Program-made: the position numbers and the translations under genes | Notes under the pieces: model-generated | Seen by the model: only the letters and a program-made list of their open reading frames with translations | Told to the model about the DNA's origin: nothing | Databases searched by the model: none | In this document: positions 1 through 13,136 of the stretch, in pieces | How positions within the stretch are numbered: the first letter of the stretch is position 1 | Layout of the letters: every line of letters begins with the position of its first letter | Origin: a virus | Lineage: Duplodnaviria; Heunggongvirae; Uroviricota; Caudoviricetes | Strand: one strand, 5' to 3' | IMG/VR virus record: IMGVR_UViG_2695420602_000002 | DNA length: 13,136 nt

Positions 1-1260
1 ATGAAACTTACCGATCTCACGGTACGAAATGCCAAGCCTGATCAGGTCAACAATAAGATTAAGAAACTGAGCGATGGAAACGGGCTATATCTCGCTGTCT
101 ACCCCAATGGGTCGAAGTACTGGCGCTTTCGTAAAGTGATTAACAGTAAAGAAACAACTCGGGCTTTAGGCATCTACCCGGCCATGACACTGGCAGAGGC
201 CAGAAGTGCCAGAGACTCGTATTTGCTTGAGTTATCCAAAGGGATTGATCCCTTGCACACCATAAAGCCTAAAATAACCTCATTTGAGGAAGTTTCCAGA
301 GAGTGGCATACCAGAAAACGTGGATGGAGTGAACCACACGCTAAAAAAGTCCTCAAAGATTTAGAAAATCATATATTCCCTGAAATAGGCAAAAGAGCAG
401 TTAATGAAATAACAACTCAGGATTTATTAACACCCCTTAGAAAAATGGAGGATAAAGGAATACTGGAAACCGCTTCGCGTATCAAACAACGCATGAATGC
501 GATCATGCGCTATGCTGTACAAAGTGGAATAATTAAATATAACCCAGCACAAGAACTGGATGGCGCTTTAGAAACAAATAAAACAAAACACCGCCCCGCC
601 CTTCCTCTTGAACGCTTACCGGAATTATTAGATAAGATTGAAAATTACCATACTCAGTCACACGGGCGGCTATTAACTCAATTAGCTGTAAGACTTAACC
701 TCTTAATTTTTATTCGCTCCAGTGAACTTCGTTTTGCTCGCTGGAATGAAATAGACCTTGATAAATCTCAGTGGATTATTCCAGCGCAACGAGAAGAAGT
801 TAAAGATGTAAGGTTTTCATACCGTGGTGCAAAAATGAAAACGCCTCATACGGTTCCTCTTGCCACACAAGCAATAGAAACTCTAAAGGCAATAAAGGTA
901 ATTTCAGGTGATGAGATATTTGTTTTCCCCGGCGACCACTATCAATCAAAACCGATGAGTGAGAATACAATAAATAAAGCGTTGCGTAATATGGGATATG
1001 ACACGCAATCAGACGTTTGTGGACATGGTTTCCGCGCTATGGCCTGTGCAGCCCTCACGGAGTCTGGAAAGTGGTCAAGAGAAGCAGTAGAGCGTCAGAT
1101 GAGCCACAAAGAAAGAAACTCCGTCAGGGCTGCATATGTCCATCAAGCCGAACATATGGAAGAACGACGCCTGATGTTGCAATGGTGGGGAGACTATCTT
1201 GAGGCCTGCCAAACAGCTTATATTCCACCTTATAAATTTGAATGGTCTTCGAAAAAATGA
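1..1260 (+). CDS. int: P4-type tyrosine integrase (site-specific recombinase, phage integrase family), 419 aa
   Basis: Full-length ORF from the track. N-terminus (MKLTDLTVRNAKP...DGNGLYL) and C-terminal motifs (GHGFRA, HMEERRLMLQWW) match the P4/CP4-type integrase family as recalled. Position next to a tRNA-type att is typical. Confidence 0.9.
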   Translation: MKLTDLTVRNAKPDQVNNKIKKLSDGNGLYLAVYPNGSKYWRFRKVINSKETTRALGIYPAMTLAEARSARDSYLLELSKGIDPLHTIKPKITSFEEVSREWHTRKRGWSEPHAKKVLKDLENHIFPEIGKRAVNEITTQDLLTPLRKMEDKGILETASRIKQRMNAIMRYAVQSGIIKYNPAQELDGALETNKTKHRPALPLERLPELLDKIENYHTQSHGRLLTQLAVRLNLLIFIRSSELRFARWNEIDLDKSQWIIPAQREEVKDVRFSYRGAKMKTPHTVPLATQAIETLKAIKVISGDEIFVFPGDHYQSKPMSENTINKALRNMGYDTQSDVCGHGFRAMACAALTESGKWSREAVERQMSHKERNSVRAAYVHQAEHMEERRLMLQWWGDYLEACQTAYIPPYKFEWSSKK

Positions 1261-1330
1261 TTCTGTGGCGTAGTCAACTTGTGGACACGCCAAAATTTTA
1301 TGCATATAAAACAATTAGATAAAACCGCCA

Positions 1331-1350
1331 AAAGACACAATGTGTCTTTT
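1331..1350 (+). terminator. Weak hairpin downstream of int (AAAGACACA / TGTGTCTTT) followed by a T/A-rich tract
   Basis: 9-nt inverted repeat read directly from the sequence, 70 bp after the int stop. The U-tract is poor, so this is tentative. Confidence 0.25.
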
Positions 1351-1792
1351 ATTAAATAACTTATTGATTTTATTATACAAATCAACCCTTATTCCATTTT
1401 GGAATTAGTGATATTAGTTTCATTCAAAATTTAGCACTAATTTATTGACGAACATCACATTTATAAAGAAAATCTTTATGTTTCCACTTCAATCAGTAGA
1501 CACCTCACCGTTAAATAGAATGACTTTACGATCTACAATAATACACTACCAATCACTATGATATTTTCAAACCGCTTCTAACCGCTTAGAGCTGCTTATA
1601 TTGGTTTGGATTGGGTTCCGAAATTCGATTCATATGAGGACTGAAAAGTCAAATCACATCAATAAGCACCAATTTTACAAAACATCTTACCTTTGATTAT
1701 GATTTCCCTGTCCCGTAAGCCACCGTAAGATCTCATATGATCCACGTTGGGTTGCAAAAAAATGAACGAGCAATATTGTATAGGTGGCTCTT

Positions 1793-2014
1793 ATGTCATT
1801 ACCAACATCATCTAATGAATATAAAACACAGAAACTTATTAGACTTCCAAAGGTTATTGAAATAACTGGAAAGTCAAGAACACGTATTTATGAAGATATG
1901 AAAGCTAACCGCTTCCCTAAAGCAATTAAAACAGGGTCACGTTCAGTCGCCTGGGTTGAACAAGAAATTGCTGAATGGATAGAGGATAAGAAGAAGCAAC
2001 GATTTCAAAACTGA
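1793..2014 (+). CDS. alpA: AlpA-family (prophage CP4-57 regulatory protein-like) HTH transcriptional regulator / excision activator, 73 aa
   Basis: Core LIRLPKVIEITGKSRTRIYEDM...SVAWVEQEIAEWIE closely parallels E. coli AlpA (ILRLPAVIQKTGMARATIYDWL...SVGWIEAEIDEWL, recalled). ATG at 1793 preferred over the GTG at 1784 because AGGTGG lies 5 nt upstream. Confidence 0.88.
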   Translation: MSLPTSSNEYKTQKLIRLPKVIEITGKSRTRIYEDMKANRFPKAIKTGSRSVAWVEQEIAEWIEDKKKQRFQN

Positions 2015-2035
2015 CCATTTATATTTTCAGTCAAT

Positions 2036-2070
2036 AAAAAACGCCTGCGTTTTGCCGAACGAGGCGTTTT
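2036..2070 (+). terminator. Rho-independent terminator after alpA
   Basis: Stem ACGCCT(2041-2046)/AGGCGT(2062-2067) with an inner CGTT/AACG stem, flanked by an A-tract upstream and TTTT downstream. It sits 22 bp after the alpA stop. Confidence 0.6.
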
Positions 2071-2195
2071 AACTGAGTTAATATCTTAACAGGAATCCAG
2101 CAATGCTTTACTTACCGGAACAACACAATTGTATACGTTTTCTTCTGGCGCTTAAAGCGTTTGACAACAGAAGAAAAAATATTCACCGCAGCCTA

Positions 2196-2225
2196 TTGAC
2201 GTCCCACAATGTACTGTCGTATCGT
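2196..2225 (+). promoter_or_regulatory. Candidate sigma70 promoter (TTGACG-N18-TATCGT) driving the leader / small RNA
   Basis: -35 TTGACG at 2196-2201 and -10 TATCGT at 2220-2225, read from sequence. The 18-nt spacer is one longer than optimal. Confidence 0.3.
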
Positions 2226-2231
2226 TTAAGC

Positions 2232-2310
2232 GTTGCCCCTCAATGGGCAATCGGGCGTGGAAACCCGTATCAGTACAAGGCGACATCAGACGCCGATTGC
2301 GTCTTTTTTA
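2232..2310 (+). ncRNA. Candidate small structured RNA / attenuator leader ending in an intrinsic terminator (possible analogue of the P4 immunity CI RNA region)
   Basis: Hairpin TTGCCC-ctcaat-GGGCAA (2233-2250), hairpin CGGG/CCCG (2252-2267), then a terminator hairpin. Lies between alpA and the early operon. No convincing protein in this stretch. Confidence 0.3.
2288..2310 (+). terminator. Rho-independent terminator (AGACGC-cgatt-GCGTCT followed by TTTTTT)
   Basis: Perfect 6-bp GC-rich stem, 5-nt loop and T6 tract read directly. It lies inside the 199-aa track ORF 2103..2702, arguing against that ORF being one gene. Confidence 0.55.
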
Positions 2311-2504
2311 TTGTCGTTAAATCAGTGCCACCATATTCAGCGGAGCAGATCCGCGCAGTATCAATGGTGGCTCTGGCAGGGCAGCTTTCGGGCTGGCCGG
2401 TCTCCTTGTACGCCGGTATTTCCACCCCTGTCAGTGTCACCACCAATCATGAGCGTGGAAACTCCGGTGGTGACTCCTTAATTAAGTACAAGGAGATCAT
2501 CATT

Positions 2505-2702
2505 ATGATGACAACCCCTGCCCCATTGCATCCCCAATTTGTTTGGCTTTTTCTCGCTGTGCGCCGTTCTGACGTGTCCGCACGTCCACACCGTGAAGAA
2601 GTCACCGCCTCAACCTATCAGGCCGCACGCCGCGTTATAGCGCGTGAATTTATCGCCTCTTTTGCCGGTCGTCTGCCGGTTCGCGAGGTGGCCCATGTTT
2701 AA
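2505..2702 (+). CDS. Hypothetical small protein, 65 aa (early operon gene 1)
   Basis: ATG at 2505 preceded by AAGGAG with a 9-nt spacer. C-terminus ...REVAHV is shared with the next gene. Stop overlaps the next start in ATGTTTAA. Confidence 0.5.
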   Translation: MMTTPAPLHPQFVWLFLAVRRSDVSARPHREEVTASTYQAARRVIAREFIASFAGRLPVREVAHV

Positions 2703-2949
2703 CCCCCTTGATAACCAAAAAGCCGCAACACTTAACCCGTTCCATGATAACCACTACGCGCCGCCAGCTTTCATCAAGCCAGGTACAAAAGTAACGGTTG
2801 AAATAGATTCGCGTGAAATGGAGATCGCCATTTTTGCCGCTTACGATTACGGCCTTGACGCTTTGAACGATAAAGGGCGGGACGTCCTGAACCGCTTAAT
2901 TGCTGAATTAAAAGATCGGATAACAGCTCGTGAGGTGGCTCATGTTTAA
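2695..2949 (+). CDS. Hypothetical small protein, 84 aa (early operon gene 2)
   Basis: Internal ATG at 2695 preceded by GAGGTGG. Overlaps the previous stop, suggesting translational coupling. C-terminus ...AREVAHV. Confidence 0.6.
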   Translation: MFNPLDNQKAATLNPFHDNHYAPPAFIKPGTKVTVEIDSREMEIAIFAAYDYGLDALNDKGRDVLNRLIAELKDRITAREVAHV

Positions 2950-3133
2950 ACTGCTTATCACCCTGATTAATCACGAAGCTGGCGACCGGCGCGAACTGGT
3001 TCACATTGGCCGCTATAAAACCCGCGAAGCTGCATGGAAAGACGCGCAGAAAATGGCGTATATCCATAAGAATGCCATCGGCACCGTAACGCATGAATGT
3101 ATTGTGAAAATTGCGGAGGCCGGAAATGTATAA
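2942..3133 (+). CDS. Hypothetical small protein, 63 aa (early operon gene 3; paralog of gene 4)
   Basis: ATG at 2942 preceded by GAGGTGG. Begins MFKLLIT..., similar to the next gene (MYKLFIT...). Stop overlaps the next start. Confidence 0.55.
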   Translation: MFKLLITLINHEAGDRRELVHIGRYKTREAAWKDAQKMAYIHKNAIGTVTHECIVKIAEAGNV

Positions 3134-3320
3134 ACTGTTCATTACCTGCCGTAACGTTATTACTGGCGAAATACAAAATTATCAAAGCACGCAGGAATAT
3201 AAATCATCCGTTAAGGCGGTGAAAGCAGCCTGTAAAATGGCCGATGTTATTACCTGTAACGGGAAATATGCCGATGATAATGAATACACCGTAACAGTCG
3301 GGAAGGTGAAACATGGCTAA
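3126..3320 (+). CDS. Hypothetical small protein, 64 aa (early operon gene 4; paralog of gene 3)
   Basis: ATG at 3126 overlaps the previous stop in ATGTATAA. Shares the M-[FY]-K-L-x-I-T start and a KMA motif with gene 3. Confidence 0.55.
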   Translation: MYKLFITCRNVITGEIQNYQSTQEYKSSVKAVKAACKMADVITCNGKYADDNEYTVTVGKVKHG

Positions 3321-3546
3321 TATCTTTCGCGGTAAAGTAACAAGGAATAAATCTTATCAGGTTTCTGGTTATGCGGTGACGCGTAAAGGTTATACGCGCA
3401 GTGCACAGGTGACGGTTGAGGCGCTTAATCGCGATGATGCAATAATCCGGGCTACGGCCCAGCTACGTTGGGAAGGATTAACGCATTTTAAAGCGCTAAA
3501 GGTGCTGGAAATAATCACGCCATTATTTATTAATCAGAGCCGATAA
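3313..3546 (+). CDS. Hypothetical small protein, 77 aa (early operon gene 5)
   Basis: ATG at 3313 overlaps the previous stop in ATGGCTAA. GGAAGGTG lies upstream. Confidence 0.55.
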   Translation: MANIFRGKVTRNKSYQVSGYAVTRKGYTRSAQVTVEALNRDDAIIRATAQLRWEGLTHFKALKVLEIITPLFINQSR

Positions 3547-3623
3547 CACGTATTTAATCTGAGTCAGTTTAAACCGAATTAATTTTCGGGGGATGCCTTC
3601 ATCCGTCGAAAGAGGACTATGCC

Positions 3624-3887
3624 ATGACAACAAGTAATCATATTCAGAGTGTTAATCCGTCTCACCTCAGTATTGAGAATTATCACAAACTGAATCGCGC
3701 GAGGAATGTCGCATTTCAGATGCATTTACATATTCGCCAGTGTGAAGCTAACGCGATGCCACTCTTATGGATACCGGATATTTTCAGTTATATCAGTGAA
3801 GATATTTCATCAGTACTACAGGAAGTTAAACGCCTGGGGATTTGTGACAAATATCTGGGACATGCTGTACAAGAAGACAAAGAGTGA
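3624..3887 (+). CDS. Hypothetical protein, 87 aa, immediately upstream of the primase (position analogous to P4 epsilon/orf151; function unknown)
   Basis: ATG at 3624 with AAGAGGA 7 nt upstream. The alternative-frame ORF 3706..3903 lacks an RBS. Confidence 0.55.
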   Translation: MTTSNHIQSVNPSHLSIENYHKLNRARNVAFQMHLHIRQCEANAMPLLWIPDIFSYISEDISSVLQEVKRLGICDKYLGHAVQEDKE

Positions 3888-3926
3888 AATAAAAGCGCCG
3901 TGATGAGCGGCGCTTAAGGATTTTAT

Positions 3927-6596
3927 ATGAACAGAAAAGATCTACGCCCCGAAATCATAAAACGACTGGTGCATGATTACCAGTTTAAAGAGCAGAACGG
4001 CTATCTGCGCTCAGGTATTTGCCCTGAATGTAACAAGAAAGAACTCTTTACCAGCATGGAAAATCCTTGGGTGCTGCGCTGTGGCCGGGAAAATAATTGC
4101 GGCGCTGATCTGTCGGTAAAATCGCTCTATCCTGAATTATTTAACTCATGGTCAGATCGCTATGAGAGCACGCCTGAGCAGCCTTTTGCCGCTGCGGAAG
4201 CCTATCTGAGAGAAGCCAGAGGGCTGGATACTACCTGCTTAAAGGGCTGCTATACGCAGGAAAGCTACCATAAGGGCGGCATGGGAAGCGCAACGGTTCG
4301 CTTTGCCCTGTCTGATGGTATCTGGTGGGAGCGGATTATCGACAAGCCAGAACGCTTTGATCGAAAGGCTAACTTCCACGGTAAGTACGCCGGTCACTGG
4401 TGGGTTCCGCCAGCGCTGGATCTGGCTAAAGTCAGTTGTATCTGGCTAACTGAGGGGATTTTTGACGCCATTAGCCTTTATCAGAACGGCACCCCTGCCG
4501 TTTCCATTATGACTGCCGGAAACTACCCGGAAGCCGCGCTTAAAGCGCTTGCTGAACAATTCCAGGGCAAAGAAAAGCCGTTTCTTGTCTGGGCGCTGGA
4601 CAATGGGAAAGCAGGGGAAACAGCCATACGTCGCCATGTGGCGCGGAGCCGTGAACAAGGCTGGAAAGCCGTTGCCGCACTTCCTTCACAGGGGAGCAAT
4701 AAAGCTGACTGGAACGATCTCCACCTTACCGGAAAGCTGACCAGACGACACCAGAAAGAGTACCGCTATTACGGCGATCTGTTGCTGGCGGAAAGCGCCC
4801 GAGATAAGGCGCTTCGGATGTTTGAACATAATGAACGCCCTGAGTTTCACTTCGAATACGGGAACTGCGTGTACTGGTTTAAGCTGGACATTGAGCGCCA
4901 TATGAAGGCCGTTGAGCGTATCCTTAACGATAAAAAAGTTAATGATGAACGTGAAGCCAGAAGTATTGCATTGAAAGAGTCTGGAGCAATTAAGGAAATA
5001 GCCAATTGTCACCCCGCACCGCTGTATTTTATGCGTTCAGAAGTTACAGACGAGTCCTGGTATTATTTTCGCATCGCCTTTCCAGGCAATACACCCGCAG
5101 TGAAAGACTCCTTTACCGCGGGGCAGATCTCTTCTGCGTCTGAGTTTAAAAAGCGTCTCCTCCATGTGGCAAAAGGTGCGCTCTATACCGGAACCAGCCA
5201 GCAGCTCGATGGTCTGATTAAAAAGGATCTGCCCCGGATCAAAGAGGTCAGGACGCAGGACTTTATTGGGTATAACAGGGACTGGCGGGCATGGGTATTC
5301 AATAAGCTGGCGATACATAACGGGAAGGTCTACTCCTTGAACAGCGAAGATTACTTTGAGATTGGTGGGATGAATATCAAGACACTGAGCCGATCCCCGT
5401 TAATCAATATCAATTCTGATGATAATTCGCTTTCGTCAGGCTGGGCCGATGATATCTGGACGGCTTTTGGTGAAAATGGCTATGTCGCGCTGGCATTCTG
5501 GCTGGGAACATTCTTCGTTGAACAGATACGCGAACAGCAGGCCAGCTTTCCCTTTCTGGAGATTATCGGTGAACCGGGAACAGGTAAATCCACGCTGATT
5601 GATTTTCTCTGGCGGCTCTGTGGCAGGGACAGCTATGAGGGAATTGACCCTTCAAAGGGTTCTGTTGCGGGCATTTATCGTAACTTCGCCCAGGTCTCAA
5701 ACCTTCCCGTCGTGCTGCTTGAAGGCGATCGCGCCCAAGACACGAAGAAGCTGCGCGGCTTTGACTTCGATGAGCTAAAACCGCTCTACAACGGGCGCGG
5801 ATTACGGGCGATTGGTGTTAAGACCAACAACAATGAAACCAGAGAGCCGCCATTCAGGGGCAGCATTGTCATCGCGCAGAATGCCACCGTTAACGCCTCA
5901 CCTGCGATACTGGAACGTATTATCCATGTGTTTACGGATAAACGCCGTCAGTCATCGCTGACCAGGGCGGCGGCTGAACGCCTTGAGCGTCTGCCGGTCG
6001 ATCAGGTATCTGGTTTTATGATCCGGGCGGTATGCAGGGAAAGCGCAGTATTGTCGATTATTCAGGAGGTGTATGAGGCCGAAAAAATCAGGCTGGAACA
6101 ACACTCTGAAATTCGTCATATCCGAATTGCCAAAAATCATGCCCAGATGATTGCATGTGTAAGGGCGCTGACCTGTGTTCTGGATATTCCCGCAGAACGC
6201 CTCGATCGCACCTGTGAACAGCTTACTGTGATGGCGGTGGAGCGGGTTAAATCGCTGGAAGCGGATATCCCTGTGGTTCGTGAGTTCTGGGATGCCTTTG
6301 ATTATCTGAATAGCCTGGAGCGTTTCGGCGTCAACCATTTTGGGAAAGAGAATCGCGACGAGATCGCCATTAACTTCCCTCACCTGATGCGTATAGCTGC
6401 TATGCAGCGTGTAAATATTCCCCCGGCGAAAGAAATTCAGGATTACCTGAAAAACGGGCGTATGCGGCCGTGTACGGGCCAGAAGACGGTAAGAAGTGAG
6501 GTTTCCAGACTGGCAAATCAGGGGCGTGGAGAGGCTGGCCCGAAAGAGCCTGAGCAGGTGAAATGCTGGATTTTTAAAGTGCCGGCCGCTCAGTAG
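3927..6596 (+). CDS. Bifunctional DNA primase-helicase (P4 alpha-like): N-terminal Zn-ribbon, TOPRIM-like region, C-terminal P-loop NTPase; 889 aa
   Basis: Cys cluster CPEC...RCGRENNCG near the N-terminus. TOPRIM-like IWLTEGIFDAISL and VWALDNGKAGE. Walker A GEPGTGKS and Walker B-like VVLLEGD. RBS AAGGA 8 nt upstream. Confidence 0.82.
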   Translation: MNRKDLRPEIIKRLVHDYQFKEQNGYLRSGICPECNKKELFTSMENPWVLRCGRENNCGADLSVKSLYPELFNSWSDRYESTPEQPFAAAEAYLREARGLDTTCLKGCYTQESYHKGGMGSATVRFALSDGIWWERIIDKPERFDRKANFHGKYAGHWWVPPALDLAKVSCIWLTEGIFDAISLYQNGTPAVSIMTAGNYPEAALKALAEQFQGKEKPFLVWALDNGKAGETAIRRHVARSREQGWKAVAALPSQGSNKADWNDLHLTGKLTRRHQKEYRYYGDLLLAESARDKALRMFEHNERPEFHFEYGNCVYWFKLDIERHMKAVERILNDKKVNDEREARSIALKESGAIKEIANCHPAPLYFMRSEVTDESWYYFRIAFPGNTPAVKDSFTAGQISSASEFKKRLLHVAKGALYTGTSQQLDGLIKKDLPRIKEVRTQDFIGYNRDWRAWVFNKLAIHNGKVYSLNSEDYFEIGGMNIKTLSRSPLININSDDNSLSSGWADDIWTAFGENGYVALAFWLGTFFVEQIREQQASFPFLEIIGEPGTGKSTLIDFLWRLCGRDSYEGIDPSKGSVAGIYRNFAQVSNLPVVLLEGDRAQDTKKLRGFDFDELKPLYNGRGLRAIGVKTNNNETREPPFRGSIVIAQNATVNASPAILERIIHVFTDKRRQSSLTRAAAERLERLPVDQVSGFMIRAVCRESAVLSIIQEVYEAEKIRLEQHSEIRHIRIAKNHAQMIACVRALTCVLDIPAERLDRTCEQLTVMAVERVKSLEADIPVVREFWDAFDYLNSLERFGVNHFGKENRDEIAINFPHLMRIAAMQRVNIPPAKEIQDYLKNGRMRPCTGQKTVRSEVSRLANQGRGEAGPKEPEQVKCWIFKVPAAQ

Positions 6597-6611
6597 CAGA
6601 GGAACAATAGT

Positions 6612-7592
6612 ATGACCATTAAAAAACGGGCTGACGGGCGTTATGAAGTCGATATTTATGCCAGAGGGCGCAGCGGTAAGCGCTTTCGCAGGATTTTTGA
6701 CAGAAAGCAGGAGGCAGCGCTCTTTGAACGGTATGTTATGGCGAATGCCGATAAAAAAGAGTGGTTGGGCGCCAGCACCGATCGGCGTACTCTCAGCGAG
6801 CTGCTAAACATCTGGTGGCTGCTGTATGGCCGGACGCTGGAGAACGGAAACGCCGAAAAACGACACCTAGATAAAACGATCAGAGCCCTGGGCAACCCGG
6901 CAGTTAACCGGCTGACTAAACGAATCATCGCGCAGCATCGCAGCGAGCGGCTGGATTCAGGGATCAGCACGGCCACCGTCAACCGTGATATATATCGCCT
7001 TTCGGGTATGTTCAGCGCCCTGATAAAACTGGATGAATTCAAGGCTGATAACCCCTGTAAAGGGCTGGAGCCATTGAGGGAGAAACCAGCAGCAATGACC
7101 TACCTTACTAAATCGGAAATCAGTCGATTATTGAATACCCTTACAGGTGACGATCGCCGTGTTGCTCTTTTGTGCCTCAGCACCGGCGCACGCTGGGGAG
7201 AAGGCAGCACACTGCGGGGAGAGCAGATTAACCACGGACGCGTAACTTTTCTTAAAACCAAAAACGGGAAGAGGCGCACGATCCCAATATCGGATGAACT
7301 GGAAAAAGAGATCAAAACCCGCGATTGCGGGCCGCTGTTCAGCGTTGACTATGAAGCCTTTTGCGGGCGGCTTAGGGAGGTTAAGCCGGACCTGCCGCGC
7401 GGGCAGGCTACGCATGTGCTTCGCCATACGTTTGCAAGCTGGTTCATGATGAACGGGGGCAATATTATCGCCTTACAACAAATTCTTGGTCACGCCAGTA
7501 TCCAGCAGACGATGGTTTATGCGCATGTTGCGCCTGACTATCTGCAACACGCCGTTTCACTCAATCCCCTTTCTGGCGGAATCAGCCTCTGA
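6612..7592 (+). CDS. Second tyrosine recombinase / integrase-family protein with an arm-type N-terminal domain, 326 aa
   Basis: C-terminal catalytic signature HVLRHTFAS ... LGHASIQQTMVYAHV (R, H-x-x-R, H, Y). GAGGAA RBS upstream. Starts 16 bp after the primase stop on the same strand. Confidence 0.78.
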   Translation: MTIKKRADGRYEVDIYARGRSGKRFRRIFDRKQEAALFERYVMANADKKEWLGASTDRRTLSELLNIWWLLYGRTLENGNAEKRHLDKTIRALGNPAVNRLTKRIIAQHRSERLDSGISTATVNRDIYRLSGMFSALIKLDEFKADNPCKGLEPLREKPAAMTYLTKSEISRLLNTLTGDDRRVALLCLSTGARWGEGSTLRGEQINHGRVTFLKTKNGKRRTIPISDELEKEIKTRDCGPLFSVDYEAFCGRLREVKPDLPRGQATHVLRHTFASWFMMNGGNIIALQQILGHASIQQTMVYAHVAPDYLQHAVSLNPLSGGISL

Positions 7593-7595
7593 ATG

Positions 7596-7620
7596 ACCGG
7601 CTGACGGGCCGGTTTACCCC
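7596..7620 (+). terminator. Possible terminator hairpin after the recombinase (ACCGGC-tgacgg-GCCGGT, then TT..CCCCTTT)
   Basis: 6-bp GC stem starting 4 bp after the stop codon. The U-tract is interrupted, so support is modest. Confidence 0.3.
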
Positions 7621-7888
7621 TTTCCCTCGTAGCGTAGATATATTCCCTTCGTTTTTAGCTGTTCTGCATTACGCCCTCATCGCCCGGATCACCGTCGTTT
7701 CTGACCGTTCTGCAGCACGGTTAAAAATGACTGTACTCGATGTATGGCCAGCACTGCCGTAAGTGGCAGTGTTTGCCGGAGTGGAGCCATTGCCGGACAT
7801 TTGGCGAAATGACAAAACATTTAACAGAAAAGAAGCCTTTTTTAAAAAAAAGCAGATTTTCCAGAATTTGAGGGGGGGGATCGGAAAC

Positions 7889-8150
7889 GGGTTACAAAAG
7901 TTACAAAGTAAAGATATAAATATATTATATTGATTTATATGTAATTTTCACCAACTTGGAAAAGTTACAACCGGGTTACGATCGGGTTACTCTGTAACCT
8001 TATCTAAAGTTACAACTTAGATATTTAACTGATTGATTTTATTGGGTGTAACTTTAATGGAACCTTTTGTAACCTCACAAAGGTTACAAATTTAATTAAT
8101 ATAAATCATTGAGTTAAGCATATTATTTCACCCCCGTAACCGTTGTAACC
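7889..8150. repeat. Iteron array in both orientations (core GGTTACAA / TTGTAACC) around an AT-rich stretch; putative origin of replication
   Basis: At least nine copies of the GTTAC(A) core. They include tandem GTTACAAA x2 (7891-7907), palindrome GGTTAC-tct-GTAACC (7985-7999), and 11-bp inverted copies GGTTACAAAAG (7890-7900) and CTTTTGTAACC (8064-8074). AT-rich segment at 7905-7950 and a G8 tract at 7872-7879. Confidence 0.5.
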
Positions 8151-8580
8151 GACTTCCGTACCTCCCCTCAGTTTTTCAGTAAAACAGCTCTTTTTCTGTT
8201 AACCCTTTTTTCACACTTCACTTTCAAATCAGCGTGCACCGAGGGCAATAAATCAACATTGTGCAACACGAAAACAGCGTGCATAACTGGCCCGGGCGCA
8301 GCCGGAGTTTGGCTCTTTTTAAGGTGAAAATGATCGCTGCAAAATCACCGCACAAATTTGCACGCTAATGCACAATTTTTTTGATGGTACTTTTGCCACT
8401 CCAGCCCAGACGGGGCACGGCTTTGGCCGGACTGCACATTTGCACAAAAAAGCGGGCTTTCTGCGTGCGGGCGAGGCGGGGGAACAAGCGCGCGCTGAGA
8501 GGTGAGACAGGATGGCATATCCTGATTATTCTCCGGCTTGATGTGATGCGTTTTATAGATGGGTAATGCAGGAAGGTGGA

Positions 8581-8614
8581 TAATGAAAACACCTCTCAGC
8601 GTGGCTCTGAGAGG
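8581..8614 (-). terminator. Intrinsic terminator-like hairpin on the minus strand (CCUCUCAG-loop-CUGAGAGG followed by UGUUUUC)
   Basis: 8-bp stem (plus strand 8592-8599 / 8607-8614) with a 7-nt loop. The U-rich tract exists only on the minus-strand transcript. About 170 bp downstream of the minus-strand RHH ORF. Confidence 0.4.
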
Positions 8615-8784
8615 CTTATATTGCATCTGGTAGTTGATCACATCTTTTTGTGTTAATGCATCAATTTTTTTGAAGGGAACGGCACCCATCAGGCTAGATC
8701 GTGAAGGATTCAAGGGCAGATCTGTACCATATGAGCGTATGCGGCTGGATGTGTAATACACCCGCTCGTACGGGCTGGGCGGGG

Positions 8785-8994
8785 TTATATTCGATGTTTC
8801 CGGCAGGAATCGATCTCAGGAACGGCTATTCGCCCGATCCCTTTAGCCAGCAGACCCGCACCGGCCAGTTCGATCAGGCAACGACAATAGCTCGCACCAC
8901 TTCGCTTGCTCATCGCCACTATGTACTGATCCAGTTCATTGGGGATCCTCAGTGATTTCAGCACCGACCTGTTATTTCTGGGTAATGTGGGCAT
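8785..8994 (-). CDS. Arc/MetJ-like ribbon-helix-helix DNA-binding protein candidate, 69 aa, divergent from the late-like operon
   Basis: Strong SD (AAGGAGGAA) 4 nt before the ATG. Predicted beta-strand/helix pattern RSVLKSLRIPNELDQYIVAMSKRSGASYCRCLIELAG parallels P22 Arc (FNLRWPREVLDLVRKVAEENGRSVNSEIYQRV, recalled). Codon usage is plausible. Confidence 0.45.
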   Translation of the reverse strand: MPTLPRNNRSVLKSLRIPNELDQYIVAMSKRSGASYCRCLIELAGAGLLAKGIGRIAVPEIDSCRKHRI

Positions 8995-9058
8995 AGTTCC
9001 TCCTTTGGCCTGTCTGCATTATCTGCGCAAACCGTCCGGGACGAATGATGCTTATAGG

Positions 9059-9076
9059 TGTAGTACACCCCTGACA
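9059..9076 (+). promoter_or_regulatory. TGT-N12-ACA dyad (P2/P4 late-promoter activator-site pattern) upstream of the 245-aa gene
   Basis: TGTagtacacccctgACA read directly, ~75-90 bp upstream of the ATG at 9150. Ogr/Delta-family activators bind such dyads around -55 (established). One chance match in ~150 bp is not negligible. Confidence 0.3.
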
Positions 9077-9149
9077 ACCTTAACGGTGCGACTGGATTTA
9101 TTTTTCCTGCAATCATTTTCCCATCGCAATAATCACAAGGTGCAGGACG

Positions 9150-9887
9150 ATGACACAAAACAACATGCAGGCATTACTCGTGAGTTACCAGCAGCAGAAA
9201 GAGCTATTTGACCGTGCCTATAAGTCTCTTTCAGACGAAGAGAAGGTGCTTGCCAACCTGAGCGAGACAAAGCGAAAAATAGAAGTGGAGTCAAACGCGG
9301 GCCATAGTGCCGGTGACTGGGGGCTTGCGTTGCTCAGGAACGGAGGCGTTGAAAGTGCGGAAACAGATGGTGCGGCACTGTCCGCAGCGCAGGTGATGGT
9401 AAAGCTTCAAAAAATCCAGGAGTTGATTGAATCCCAGAGCCTGACGGTGCTTGATCTACGGATTCAAACCGCAAGCCAGGCACGCCAGACGAAAGAGGCT
9501 TATTTTAAACTTTCGTCAGTGATTGCGGATTCTTTTCTCCAGTCTCTTAAAGACGACCTCAGAGCGCTGGTTGGTGAGCGATTGTCTGTCGTCATTGGGC
9601 TTTATTCTCTGGCAGGATTAAACACCAGTGATGCAGAAAGAATATTATCAGATGAATTTATGAAGTTACTTCGCGTTGACTCCAGAACGGTTGTACGTGA
9701 ATTATTGAGTGATGCTGACAGTAGTCTTTTCAGCGATCCTGTACTGGCATTTTTCCCCGGTGCATTGTCTGGCAGTATTAACCATGCGTTAAATAACAGT
9801 CCTTCGCCAATTCAGGAATCTAAAGCACGCTCTGATATGGATTATAAGAAGAGACTGGCGGCGGGTATTGAGCCATTCAGAAAATAG
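9150..9887 (+). CDS. Hypothetical coiled-coil-rich protein, 245 aa; possibly a Sid/Psu-like or scaffold-like capsid-associated protein (positional inference only)
   Basis: Good ORF with a Q/E/K/L-rich helical composition. Immediately upstream of the capsid-like gene and Ogr. Length similar to P4 Sid (244 aa, recalled), but no sequence match could be verified. Confidence 0.65.
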   Translation: MTQNNMQALLVSYQQQKELFDRAYKSLSDEEKVLANLSETKRKIEVESNAGHSAGDWGLALLRNGGVESAETDGAALSAAQVMVKLQKIQELIESQSLTVLDLRIQTASQARQTKEAYFKLSSVIADSFLQSLKDDLRALVGERLSVVIGLYSLAGLNTSDAERILSDEFMKLLRVDSRTVVRELLSDADSSLFSDPVLAFFPGALSGSINHALNNSPSPIQESKARSDMDYKKRLAAGIEPFRK

Positions 9888-9924
9888 TCTTGATTAAATT
9901 CATACCATCAATGGAGTTTTTTAT

Positions 9925-10962
9925 ATGAAAAACAGCACCAGAGAAAAATATGATGCATGGTGCTTATTGCAGGCATCACAAAATAAGCTGAACAGTTCAA
10001 AGCTGGATGGGATTTCCTTTTCACTTACACCATCTGCATCGCAAACTATTGTTGATAAGATGCAGGAAAGCGCAGATTTACTTAAACAGATAAATATTCT
10101 GGAAGTGGACGAGCAGGAAGAAGAGTCGATCGGGCTTACATCTGTACCGCTGTCCAGTACGAACAACTCAACGACAGAGGCACGCCAGCCCGTACAAGGT
10201 TGTACAGCAGAGACTGACCGATACCGTTGTGAGCAGGTGAATACTGATACCTATGTTTCTTATGAGAAACTGGATCAGTGGGCGGGCCTTGATAATTTCT
10301 TCGGGCATATGGAGAGCCAGATTTATCGCCGTCAGGCACTGGATGTAATACTGACTGGCATTTATGGCACTCACCATGCGGCTAAATCAGATATTACTGC
10401 TAACCCGTTGCTTCAGGATGTTAATACCGGCTGGTTAGAAAAGTGGCGGCGAAATGCCTCAGCCCGCGTGGTTAATGGTGTATCGGTCAGTCGCCGCAAT
10501 AACGCCAATATTATCGAGTCCAGCGGGGATTACGGTACTATTGACTCTCTGACGATGGAGGCATATCAGGAATTATTAGATCCGTGGCACACCGGGGATT
10601 CAGATCTTGTTGTTATTTGTAATCTCTCATTGATTACAGGAAAGTATTATCCCTTTGTTAATAATCTTGGAGTGACACCAAATAAAGAGTTGCTCGCTTT
10701 AGCATTACAAAATGAGAACCGTCAGATCGGAGGGCTTCCCGTTTGCCCAATTCCGTTCTTTCCTCAAAATGCGATGCTGGTTACTTCGCTTGATAATCTG
10801 TCTTTGTACTGGCAAACAGGAACACACCGCCGCAAAATCTCGGAAGAACCGGAATTTAACCGCGTCTCAACCTATGATTCGTGGAATAACGCCTATGTGG
10901 TCGAAGACTACGGCAAGGGATGCCTGATTGAAGGGATTATCTGGGGTAACGATCAGCGTTAA
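9925..10962 (+). CDS. P2 gpN-family major capsid protein homolog, 345 aa
   Basis: Segments match gpN as recalled from memory: SQTIVDKMQESADLLKQINI (gpN TQTLMNTMQESSDFLTRINI), YRCEQVNTDTYVSYEKLDQWA (gpN YECDQINFDFYIRYKTLDLWA), LLQDVNTGWLEKWR, GDSDLVVI, HRRKISEEPEFNRV...YVVEDYGKGCLIE. The function needs a search to confirm. Confidence 0.6.
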   Translation: MKNSTREKYDAWCLLQASQNKLNSSKLDGISFSLTPSASQTIVDKMQESADLLKQINILEVDEQEEESIGLTSVPLSSTNNSTTEARQPVQGCTAETDRYRCEQVNTDTYVSYEKLDQWAGLDNFFGHMESQIYRRQALDVILTGIYGTHHAAKSDITANPLLQDVNTGWLEKWRRNASARVVNGVSVSRRNNANIIESSGDYGTIDSLTMEAYQELLDPWHTGDSDLVVICNLSLITGKYYPFVNNLGVTPNKELLALALQNENRQIGGLPVCPIPFFPQNAMLVTSLDNLSLYWQTGTHRRKISEEPEFNRVSTYDSWNNAYVVEDYGKGCLIEGIIWGNDQR

Positions 10963-11030
10963 CCCGTCTCCGGTCTGGTTCAGTATGGTATTATTATTGC
11001 GATACTAACCAGACCAGAGGAGAAGCGCAT

Positions 11031-11264
11031 ATGGCTATGCGTTGCCCTCAATGCCATGCAACGGCGAAGACAAGAACCAGCGTTGAACTCAGCGACCTGG
11101 TAAGAAAAAGCTATCATCAGTGCCAGAACCTTAAGTGTGGCCTGACGTTTATCTCTATGACAGAGATTTACTGCACGCTTAACCGTCCCGATTTGCCATC
11201 ACATACCCTTGAAGCCCTTCCACCGGACAAGTTCCCGATCAGCCACCAGGAAAAAACGCTGTAA
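11031..11264 (+). CDS. ogr: Ogr/Delta-family zinc-finger late-gene transcriptional activator, 77 aa
   Basis: C5-x2-C8-x22-C31-x4-C36 spacing with the SYHQCQNLKCGLTF motif (P2 Ogr RYHQCQNVNCSATF, recalled). RBS GAGGAGAAG upstream. Confidence 0.85.
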   Translation: MAMRCPQCHATAKTRTSVELSDLVRKSYHQCQNLKCGLTFISMTEIYCTLNRPDLPSHTLEALPPDKFPISHQEKTL

Positions 11265-11271
11265 ATACCCA

Positions 11272-11300
11272 TGCAGCCCCTATCTATAGGGGTTGCAGTG
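11272..11300 (+). terminator. Hairpin after ogr (GCAGCCCCTAT / ATAGGGGTTGC, one G-U) with a weak U tail
   Basis: 11-12 bp stem starting 8 bp after the ogr stop. The tail GTGCTTTAACA has only a short U-run. Confidence 0.35.
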
Positions 11301-11352
11301 CTTTAACAGCGGTGATAGATATCGCTAATAACAGGCCAGTAGTACGCTATCA

Positions 11353-11374
11353 AACGGGTACAATAACGGGTACA
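11353..11374. repeat. Tandem direct repeat AACGGGTACA x2 (candidate integrase arm-type sites in the attR arm)
   Basis: Two perfect 10-bp copies 12 bp apart, about 60-80 bp from the tRNA-like core. An IHF-like site TATCAATAAGTTA lies at 11403-11415. Confidence 0.3.
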
Positions 11375-11428
11375 TCTAACAGCCAATAAAACTATAATCA
11401 ATAAATATCAATAAGTTAAATTAAAAGA

Positions 11429-11448
11429 CGATTCCTGCAGGGACACCA
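11429..11448 (+). other. attR core: 3'-terminal fragment of a tRNA gene (T-loop/T-stem/acceptor/CCA), most like tRNA-Arg argW
   Basis: CGATTCCTGCAGGGACACCA ends in ACCA with T-stem and acceptor 3' halves but no 5' half, so it is a repeat copy and not a gene. The recalled argW 3' end is GGTTCGATTCCTGCAGGGGACACCA. Confidence 0.55.
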
Positions 11449-11888: not shown

Positions 11889-13136
11889 CTATATTGCTGA
11901 AGGTACAGGCGTTTCCATAACTATTTGCTCGCGTTTTTTACTCAGGAAGAAAATGCCAAATAGCAACATCAGGCAGACAATACCCGAAATTGCGAAGAAA
12001 ACTGTCTGGTAGCCTGCGTGGTCAAAGAGTATCCCAGTCGGCGTTGAAAGCAGCACAATCCCAAGCGAACTGGCAATTTGAAAACCAATCAGAAAGATCG
12101 TCGACGACAGGCGCTTATCAAAATTTGCCACGCTGTATTTGAAGACGGATATGACACAAAGTGGAACCTCAATGGCATGTAACAGCTTCACTAATGAAAT
12201 AATCCAGGGGTTAACGAACAGCGCGCAGGAAAGGATACGCAACGCCATAATCACAACACCGATAAGTAATGCATTTTTTGGCCCTACCCGATTCACAAAG
12301 AAAGGAATAATCGCCATGCATAGCGCTTCGAGTACCACCTGGAATGAGTTGAGATAACCATACAGGCGCGTTCCTACATCGTGTGATTCGAATAAACCTG
12401 CATAAAAGACAGGAAAAAGTTGTTGATCAAAAATGTTATAGAAAGACCACGTCCCCACAATAAATATGACGAAAACCCAGAAGTTTCGATCCTTGAAAAC
12501 TGCGATAAAATCCTCTTTTTTTACCCCTCCCGCATCCGCCGCTACGCACTGGTGATCCTTATCTTTAAAACACATGTTGATCATCATAAATACAGCGCCA
12601 AATAGCGAGACCAACCAGAAGTTGATATGGGGACTGATACTAAAAAATATGCCGGCAAAGAACGCGCCAATAGCATAGCCAAAAGATCCCCAGGCGCGCG
12701 CTGTTCCATATTCGAAATGAAAATTTCGCGCCATTTTTTCGGTGAAACTGTCAAGCAAACCGCATCCCGCCAGATACCCCAGGCCAAAAAAGAGCGCCCC
12801 CAGAATTAGACCTACAGAAAAATTGCTTTGCAGTAACGGTTCATAAACGTAAATCATAAACGGTCCGGTCAAGACCAGGATGAAACTCATACACCAGATG
12901 AGCGGATTCTTCAGACCGAGTTTATCCTGAACGATGCCGTAGAACATCATAAATAGAATGCTGGTAAACTGGTTGACCGAATAAAGTGTACCTAATTCCG
13001 TCCCTGTCAACCCTAGATGTCCTTTCAGCCAAATAGCGTATAACGACCACCACAGCGACCAGGAAATAAAAAAGAGAAATGAGTAACTGGATGCAAAACG
13101 ATAGTACGCATTTCTGAATGGAATATTCAGTGCCAT
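11889..13136 (-). CDS. cscB: Sucrose:H+ symporter (LacY-family MFS oligosaccharide permease), 415 aa
   Basis: Full ORF whose start is the last base of the window. The sequence (MALNIPFRNAYYRFASSYSFLFF...) matches E. coli CscB as recalled and shows LacY-family motifs and multiple hydrophobic spans. Confidence 0.85.
   Translation of the reverse strand: MALNIPFRNAYYRFASSYSFLFFISWSLWWSLYAIWLKGHLGLTGTELGTLYSVNQFTSILFMMFYGIVQDKLGLKNPLIWCMSFILVLTGPFMIYVYEPLLQSNFSVGLILGALFFGLGYLAGCGLLDSFTEKMARNFHFEYGTARAWGSFGYAIGAFFAGIFFSISPHINFWLVSLFGAVFMMINMCFKDKDHQCVAADAGGVKKEDFIAVFKDRNFWVFVIFIVGTWSFYNIFDQQLFPVFYAGLFESHDVGTRLYGYLNSFQVVLEALCMAIIPFFVNRVGPKNALLIGVVIMALRILSCALFVNPWIISLVKLLHAIEVPLCVISVFKYSVANFDKRLSSTIFLIGFQIASSLGIVLLSTPTGILFDHAGYQTVFFAISGIVCLMLLFGIFFLSKKREQIVMETPVPSAI

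Follow-up and report, generated by a model that had tools for sequence, protein, structure and literature searches.

The stretch of DNA analysed here (the window; 13,136 nucleotides of one strand, IMG/VR virus record IMGVR_UViG_2695420602_000002) holds a satellite prophage of the P4-like kind, about 11.5 kb long. Positions 1-11448 are 99.98% identical to an element in Escherichia coli KCJ3K291, which is integrated at a tRNA-Arg gene and has its right end marked by a 17-bp repeat of the tRNA 3′ end. The replication module has a gene for an 889-residue Toprim primase-helicase (3927-6596, plus strand), a full-length match to the protein family phrog_1139, followed after 15 bp by an intact gene for a P2-type integrase (6612-7592). 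Beyond the integrase lies a gene-free gap of 1.2 kb (7593-8784), and inside this gap stands a dense array of short repeats, at which an earlier note on the same DNA (the original prediction) had set a putative iteron-type origin, at 7840-8160. Because the ends of the element are the tRNA-Arg gene and its 17-bp 3′-end repeat, the array is internal to the integrated element. Here we describe the array and its counterparts beside related primase-helicase genes, and weigh the case for regarding it as the replication origin of the satellite.

Anatomy of the repeat array

The pentamer GTTAC occurs 30 times in the whole window, and 12 of these copies fall within 7891-8149, with seven cores on the plus strand (7891, 7900, 7964, 7975, 7986, 8009 and 8083) and five on the minus strand (7994, 8048, 8069, 8136 and 8145). 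A thirteenth copy is degenerate (GGAAC, core 8060-8064), and relatives have an exact copy at that place. The extended consensus of the repeat, hereafter the iteron, is R-GTTAC-A-A, and five of the six GGTTACA heptamers in the window are inside the array. At the rate observed outside the array, 0.36 copies would be expected per 261 bp (Poisson P(≥12) = 8e-15); when the local 316-bp segment was simulated 20,000 times with a first-order Markov model, the number of GTTAC copies never exceeded 9.

Read from left to right, four groups of iterons alternate with three AT-rich spacers. The left outer pair, GGTTACAA and AGTTACAA (7890-7906, plus strand), consists of two direct copies 9 bp apart, and is followed by spacer 1 (7908-7962, 82% AT), a candidate unwinding region. 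The central-left cluster (7963-8015) comprises three direct copies spaced at 11 bp (7963, 7974 and 7985), an inverted copy (7992-7999) that creates the palindrome GGTTACTCTGTAACC (7985-7999), and a further direct copy (8008-8015). Within the central spacer (8017-8045, 79% AT) is a predicted site for integration host factor (IHF), an exact match to the consensus (AATCAATCAGTTA, 8026-8038, minus strand). The central-right cluster (8046-8089) holds an inverted copy (8046-8053), the degenerate copy, another inverted copy (8067-8074) and a direct copy (8082-8089), the last of which makes a second palindrome, TTTGTAACCT-cacaa-AGGTTACAAA (8066-8090). Spacer 3 (8091-8134, 77% AT), in which an IHF-like site close to the consensus occupies 8104-8116, leads to the right outer pair (8134-8150, minus strand), again 9 bp apart and inverted with respect to the left pair. 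The AT content of the three spacers, 77-82%, compares with 54% for the whole window. No DnaA box was found at the array within one mismatch, and an Rfam scan gave no match in the array region.

The array follows the primase-helicase gene

In four close relatives, designated L010-L013, which have primases 87-92% and integrases 86-87% identical to those of the window, all 12 cores are unchanged whereas the spacers differ. Across five close relatives, 96% of the iteron columns are invariant, as against 69% of the spacer columns (Fisher p = 4e-8).

The comparison extends much further. A database search with the primase-helicase returned 2,402 homologues of the phrog_1139 family at E ≤ 1e-20, spread over Enterobacterales satellites of the P4-like kind and over P2-like phages whose hosts include Escherichia, Ralstonia and Pseudomonas. 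ESSI2_ev239 and RSY1 are among the P2-like phages that use this family, as does a set of Pseudomonas phages. We compared about 21 arrays, beside primases 52-92% identical. Where no gene is inserted, the array starts 156-390 bp past the primase stop codon (L084, L086, L087, L089, L091 and L111-L114); where a 1-kb integrase gene is inserted, as in the window, L010-L013, L083, L085, L088 and L098-L101, it starts about 1290 bp past that stop. The Salmonella locus L084, with a primase 65% identical, has 13 GGTTACA copies in the same layout 240 bp past the primase stop. Satellites and some P2-like helper phages encode the same primase-helicase family beside the same 13-site scaffold, and the GGTTACA iteron itself is common to this satellite and the phage loci L112 and L113. 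No gene other than that for the primase-helicase is shared by every array-bearing locus, whether of a satellite or of a P2-like phage. At the more distant primase loci L014-L016 (42-48% identical, GC-rich hosts), k-mer counting revealed no array.

The layout is retained with some precision. Among arrays in which the full pattern could be read, the orientations recur as +++++-+---+-- and the start-to-start spacings as roughly 9, 64, 11, 11, 8, 15, 39, 12, 10, 14, 53 and 9 bp; most arrays keep the 13 sites, with local variants such as one copy extra or missing. The 9-bp left outer pair is present in every array found. Spacer 1 varies in sequence and retains its length, with 64 bp from the start of iteron 2 to the start of iteron 3 in most arrays, and an exact or near IHF consensus stands at the equivalent position in eight of nine aligned arrays. 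What changes on this scaffold is the iteron, which by lineage is GGTTACA, GGTTACT, CGTTACA, CCTTACA, GGTCACA or CATCACA, the six types being largely grouped by primase clade. Within each array the copies are homogeneous, as would be expected of sites evolving together with one specific binding protein.

The locus L091, a Providencia P2-like phage, has partial GGTTACA-type arrays (6760-6890 and 7400-7550) on either side of its complete CGTTACA array; they correspond to a right half and to a left part in compressed form, with their own GGGG-TTCGGAAA boundary. The primases of L091 and of L112, a phage with GGTTACA iterons, are 96% identical. These remnants suggest that one origin cassette inserted into or replaced another, and together with the L112-like primase they are consistent with cassette replacement. 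Repeat blocks of a different organisation occur at more distant primase loci: L092, from Paraburkholderia, has CATCGTC/GACGATG inverted pairs downstream of the gene (7470-7740), and L135 has twelve GTAAC cores (640-860) some 2.3 kb upstream of its primase gene, a number of which form a run with 11-13 bp between them.

Boundary elements

The array is enclosed by two sets of inverted repeats. On its left a run of eight G residues followed by ATCGGAAACG (7872-7889, plus strand) precedes the first iteron, and on its right GACTTCCGTACCTCCCC (8151-8167) is the inverted counterpart; with the outer iteron pairs these form a 32-nucleotide imperfect inverted repeat (7873-7904 and 8136-8167) made up of the G run, the CGGAA motif and the outer pair. 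Farther out, the inverted repeat TTAACAGAAAAGA has its left arm, TTTAACAGAAAAGAAG, at 7820-7835 (plus strand) and its right arm, CTCTTTTTCTGTTAAC, at 8188-8203 (minus strand). This outer repeat is kept in the clade of the window and in L084, L086, L083 and L085, and is missing in L088, L089 and L091; homology to the closest relatives stops about 10 bp past the right arm, near 8210. It brackets the whole unit and is unchanged despite the different iterons of the window, L084, L086 and L083.

A run of five to nine G residues and a CGGAAA-like motif (CGCAAA in L088) precede the first iteron in all compared lineages except L087, and on the far side they are mirrored by TT(T/G/C)C(C/G)G and, after it, a stretch rich in C. 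Among close relatives the run differs mainly by substitutions at its 3′ end (G8-A, G7-TA and G9); L013 has one true 1-bp indel, and the same G9 was found in assemblies of three different samples. As far as these comparisons go, the G run is a conserved boundary element, with nothing to suggest phase variation.

These results bear on most of what the original prediction had described. The dense bidirectional array is real and was undercounted, at least nine cores having been claimed where we find 12 exact copies and one degenerate copy. The palindrome given as GGTTAC-tct-GTAACC, the GCCTTTTTT/AAAAAAAAGC sequences said to precede the repeats (7835-7853), the G8 run (7872-7879) and the strongly AT-rich DNA among the repeats can all be read in the window. 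The proposed extent of 7840-8160 does contain the array, although the unit is somewhat larger, its inverted repeats reaching out to 7820 and 8203. The suggestion that the G tract is a slippage site tuning origin or promoter activity finds no support, nor does a hypermutable switch, when tract length is compared among relatives: the tract, between G5 and G9, is part of a conserved boundary and varies in length mostly by substitution.

A candidate origin probably read by the primase-helicase

We propose that 7820-8203 is the replication origin of this P4-like satellite and that its iterons are recognised by the satellite's own primase-helicase, a reading to which we assign a probability of roughly 0.8. 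The array is real, is conserved at the resolution of single sites and accompanies the primase-helicase gene with or without an integrase or a cos site nearby. The origin reading is favoured because the array follows this gene across lineages, including those without a P2-type recombinase and P2-like phages, and because the architecture is fixed while the sequence of the repeat turns over by lineage. The invariance of the iteron columns, the AT-rich spacers with the conserved IHF consensus, and the precedents discussed below also speak for it. The iteron-type origin next to replication genes envisaged in the original prediction is accordingly favoured, at the level of sequence comparison, by every comparative test that we ran.

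The primase-helicase has an N-terminal Cys-rich motif, a Toprim primase domain, a Walker-A ATPase and a putative C-terminal helical and winged-helix-like domain, and PDB sequence and profile searches with it gave marginal Toprim matches only. In the mechanism that we infer, this protein would bind the 13 iterons (consensus R-GTTAC-AA), probably through the C-terminal winged-helix-like domain, and the outer iteron pairs, which face each other, would set the orientation of two helicase rings so that they load in both directions. At the conserved central site the DNA may be bent by IHF, and one or more of the three AT-rich spacers would melt; the Toprim domain would then prime synthesis and theta replication would follow, after which the cos site at 8470-8488 would serve packaging by a P2-like helper phage.

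Several observations weigh against this reading. The specificity for the iteron was sought in the primase by sliding-window identity, by regression on iteron type and by diagnostic substitutions in two natural swaps (L100 compared with L088, L098, L099 and L101; L091 and L114 compared with L112 and L113), and among the swapped and control lineages no segment had substitutions that track iteron type. Substitutions in the swapped lineages pile up at residues 851-885, as do lineage-private ones in the controls, and the C-terminal 40 residues are hypervariable in both alike. The primases of L088 and L100 are 91% identical. Primases that are 95-96% identical adjoin either GGTTACA arrays (L112 and L113) or CGTTACA arrays (L091 and L114); therefore, either specificity is set by few residues or it depends little on the first base, and on these comparisons the first base of the heptamer may indeed count for little. 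In a sub-branch of P2-like phages with the same primase (L090, ESSI2_ev239 and L102-L110), no array was found within 3-4 kb of the gene. Finally, the array lies a constant distance of about 320 bp from cos in several satellites, and a secondary role in packaging is possible.

Alternative functions of the array

The primase-helicase alone is common to all array-bearing loci, and for that reason the integrase and packaging explanations considered below fail; the same fact bears on a regulatory one. On that account the repeats would be the operator or promoter array of another regulator, for instance the AlpA/HTH_17 protein or an Ogr/Delta protein, governing the transcription that enters the morphogenesis genes, and the array would not be an origin. 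GTTACA does resemble a −35 hexamer, a consensus scan placed inward-facing promoter-like sites on the outer iterons (7900-7928, plus strand; 8149-8122, minus strand), and autoregulation is common among iteron arrays. The scan, however, yielded four sites, scarcely more than the 2.6 expected from shuffled sequence, AlpA/HTH_17 and Ash are absent from the array-bearing phage loci, and the combination of 13 sites, dyad boundaries and three AT-rich spacers is more elaborate than known operators. We consider a purely regulatory array unlikely.

The promoter-like sites have −10-like boxes 16-17 bp inward of the outer iterons, facing the AT-rich spacers. Through such sites transcription might activate the origin, or autoregulation might occur.

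A packaging accessory site beside cos, comparable to lambda cosB, which has repeats bound by terminase and an IHF site, and read by the small terminase of the helper phage, is very unlikely. The P2-type cos site (GGCGAGGCGGGGGAACAAGC, 8470-8488) does lie about 320 bp to the right of the array, at a distance similar to those in L086, L088, L010 and L083; the P2-like phages SEN4 and SEN5 have at their right end a match to the left flank of cos (8340-8469), and the conserved IHF consensus in the array is a cosB-like feature. The two sites nevertheless come apart. We found no cos-like sequence near the array in L084 or L087, and in L091 the array is followed by defence-type genes, with no cos-like sequence detected in the 3.3 kb downstream. 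The window and L010 share an iteron and have unrelated cos flanks, whereas L010 and L083 share a cos type and have different iterons; iteron type goes with primase clade and not with cos type. Homology to the closest relatives also breaks at about 8210, between the array and cos.

Before cos, TGCACAA/GTGCAC repeats occupy 8340-8450, and similar ones are kept in relatives despite differing surroundings. They may be terminase recognition elements.

In the third account the repeats are arm-type and core-type sites of the adjacent P2-type integrase, forming an attP-like or dimer-resolution site. The integrase is intact (E = 9e-86 to the P2 integrase, PDB 5c6k), with conserved Arg, His-x-x-Arg, His and Tyr motifs in its catalytic domain; its gene lies about 290 bp upstream of the array, is probably co-transcribed with the primase gene, and in P2 attP sits just downstream of int. 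The array also has the look of an intasome, with a span of about 260 bp, repeat pairs at each end and an IHF site, and TTTGTAACC-TCACAAA-GGTTACAAA resembles a core with a 7-bp spacer. Relative to the SEN5 integrase, moreover, the N-terminal arm-binding region is about 68% identical, as against about 83% for the whole protein.

Against this stand the true attP sites of related integrases, those of SEN5 and phiT5282H (integrases 82-83% identical) and of Wphi (65%), which start no more than 10 bp past the int stop codon and have arms of TGTCTACA or TGTCCACA repeats, 11 bp apart and in the same orientation on both arms. Nothing comparable to such TGTC(C/T)ACA-type arms is present at 7593-7880 of the window, and the array repeats are 9 bp apart with their ends inverted. 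The array, palindromes included, occurs in six lineages (L084, L086, L087, L089, L115 and L119) that gave no match to a P2-type integrase within the 3-7 kb searched to either side of the gene for the primase. In L091, a P2-like phage, the integrase stands in its canonical place, 5-6 kb from the array, with GTCCACA arm repeats of its own at 708-786, the array remaining beside the primase gene; and the integrases of the window and L088, only 53% identical, adjoin the same GGTTACA iteron. On the strength of true attP sites, integrase-less lineages and phages with separate GTCCACA arms, we reject as very unlikely that the array is a P2-type attP, and the idea, raised with the original prediction, that the repeats could be arm-type sites bound only by the recombinase sits poorly with an array that persists where that integrase is missing.

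The satellite has a second integrase, the P2-type enzyme, besides a P4-type integrase at its tRNA-Arg end, and only some of the satellite lineages have the P2-type gene. The 66 related integrase loci compared from IMG/VR are all at most 83% identical and nearly all at contig ends, as expected of P2-like prophages. Helper excision and dimer resolution are possible roles for it; the array does not explain why this gene stands between the primase gene and the proposed origin.

Comparison with known origins and sites

Replication of phage P4 requires two separate cis elements, ori and crr. The GenBank annotation of P4 shows crr as ten octamers, some in each orientation, within 300 bp just behind the alpha gene, and gives ori six more. 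The likeness to our array is considerable: P4 and the present element are both satellites of P2-like phages, the repeats are of about 8 bp, lie in both orientations within a block of about 300 bp and are sometimes 9-11 bp apart, and one multifunctional primase-helicase is the presumed initiator, crr lying directly downstream of its gene. The P4 octamer TGTTCACC also resembles the TGTTACA variant of L089. The initiators, in contrast, scarcely match, with BLASTP aligning only a Walker-A patch of 27 residues (E = 0.007) and, weakly, a Toprim stretch (E = 0.23), and no P4 alpha structure was among the matches listed for a model of the C-terminal part of the primase. P4 ori and crr are also about 4.5 kb apart whereas the window has a single cluster, and crr is a tandem 120-bp duplication whereas the array has dyad boundaries. 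We also considered a crr-like second cluster, since GTAAC is enriched at 3086-3341, and rejected it: these copies do not have the R...AA flanks, fall within small open reading frames (ORFs) and are only partly conserved.

The origins of Staphylococcus aureus pathogenicity islands (SaPIs) have 6-12 short iterons directly downstream of rep, in opposite orientations around an AT-rich centre, which are read by the C-terminal winged-helix domain of Rep (PMC9371898). The array shares with these origins, which serve the self-loading helicases Rep or Pri-Rep, several short iterons downstream of an initiator-helicase gene, AT-rich DNA between oppositely oriented iterons and outer pairs oriented ++ and −−. 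It differs in host phylum and helper phages and shows no sequence homology to them. Where the SaPI origin has one centre, the array alternates four iteron clusters with three AT-rich spacers; its spacing is fixed across lineages, inverted repeats of the G-run/CGGAAA type bound it, and an IHF consensus is conserved within it.

The P2-type attP sites (P2, Wphi and SEN5), at which Int, IHF and Cox assemble the intasome, are alike in lying downstream of a P2-type int and in having a span of about 250 bp, repeat pairs at the ends and an IHF site; they are unlike the array in the sequence of the repeat, its spacing (11 bp, against 9 bp in the array) and the relative orientation of the ends.

The iterons of plasmids of the pSC101, R6K, RK2, F and P1 type are 17-22 bp long and tandem in one orientation, and work with Rep_3-type proteins and DnaA boxes. 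The general principle of an element-specific initiator at repeated sites beside AT-rich DNA, with IHF in some, is the same; unlike them, the array has sites of 7-8 bp in both orientations, has no DnaA box within one mismatch and has a presumed initiator that is itself a helicase. None of the ten largest ORF products of the window matches the Rep_3 family.

By analogy, we would class the array functionally as a satellite origin of the P4/SaPI type, outside the classes of P4 ori/crr, P2 attP and Rep_3-type origins. It falls outside the P4 ori/crr system because its presumed initiator is not a detectable homologue of alpha and there is only one cluster. A literature search found nothing relevant on GGTTACA iterons or on the origin of this satellite family.

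Implications

The array provides a concrete candidate origin for the widespread and uncharacterised primase-helicase family phrog_1139. The natural swaps of specificity on a fixed scaffold, with six iteron types of which some stand beside primases 90-96% identical, would lend themselves well to mapping the way in which a self-loading helicase recognises its origin. In annotation, repeat blocks like this one should be labelled rep_origin, and neither attP nor part of cos.

A more speculative idea, which we think rather doubtful, is that the origin is a point of replication parasitism or interference between satellite and helper, with conflict driving iteron turnover and cassette replacement. 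If this were true, the primase of the helper might fire the satellite origin, or the satellite primase or iterons might titrate those of the helper.

Other features of the element

Left of the replication module, the element carries the P4-type integrase gene (1-1260), an AlpA-like helix-turn-helix gene (1784-2014), an Ash/Icd-like ORF (2103-2702) and a gene for an Epsilon-like derepression protein (3624-3887). Rfam matches to the C4 antisense RNA (79 bits) and isrK (57 bits) at 2219-2447 sit within the Ash/Icd-like ORF, and this segment looks, from its sequence, like a P4 CI-RNA-type immunity region. Right of cos are an ORF of 245 amino acids (9150-9887), a P2-family major capsid gene (9925-10962) and an Ogr/Delta zinc-finger gene (11031-11264).

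The satellite itself encodes a P2-family major capsid protein, of 345 amino acids; the 245-residue protein, which has no family match, precedes it at the position of the P2 scaffold gene gpO. No homologue of sid or psu was detected in the satellite. In relatives whose replication module is 87-92% identical, the capsid module is only 31-42% identical, from which we conclude that the capsid module has been swapped; past about 8210, cos has been replaced as well.

Between int and the array lies a conserved non-coding segment (7690-7790) with a hairpin at 7746-7777. Substitutions in the stem among relatives keep their pairing solely as G-U pairs of the minus strand, a hint of an RNA or a terminator on that strand. 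Intergenic pieces of two P2-like phages, phiT5282H and SI7, match the segment, part of which also occurs in the integrase-less L084.

The relative L011 is a 12.7-kb contig labelled as belonging to a Bacillota metagenome-assembled genome, in which the cos region is repeated at both ends (207-359 and 12414-12552). Probably it represents a complete satellite of enterobacterial type, assembled in circular or concatemeric form and assigned to the wrong genome in binning.

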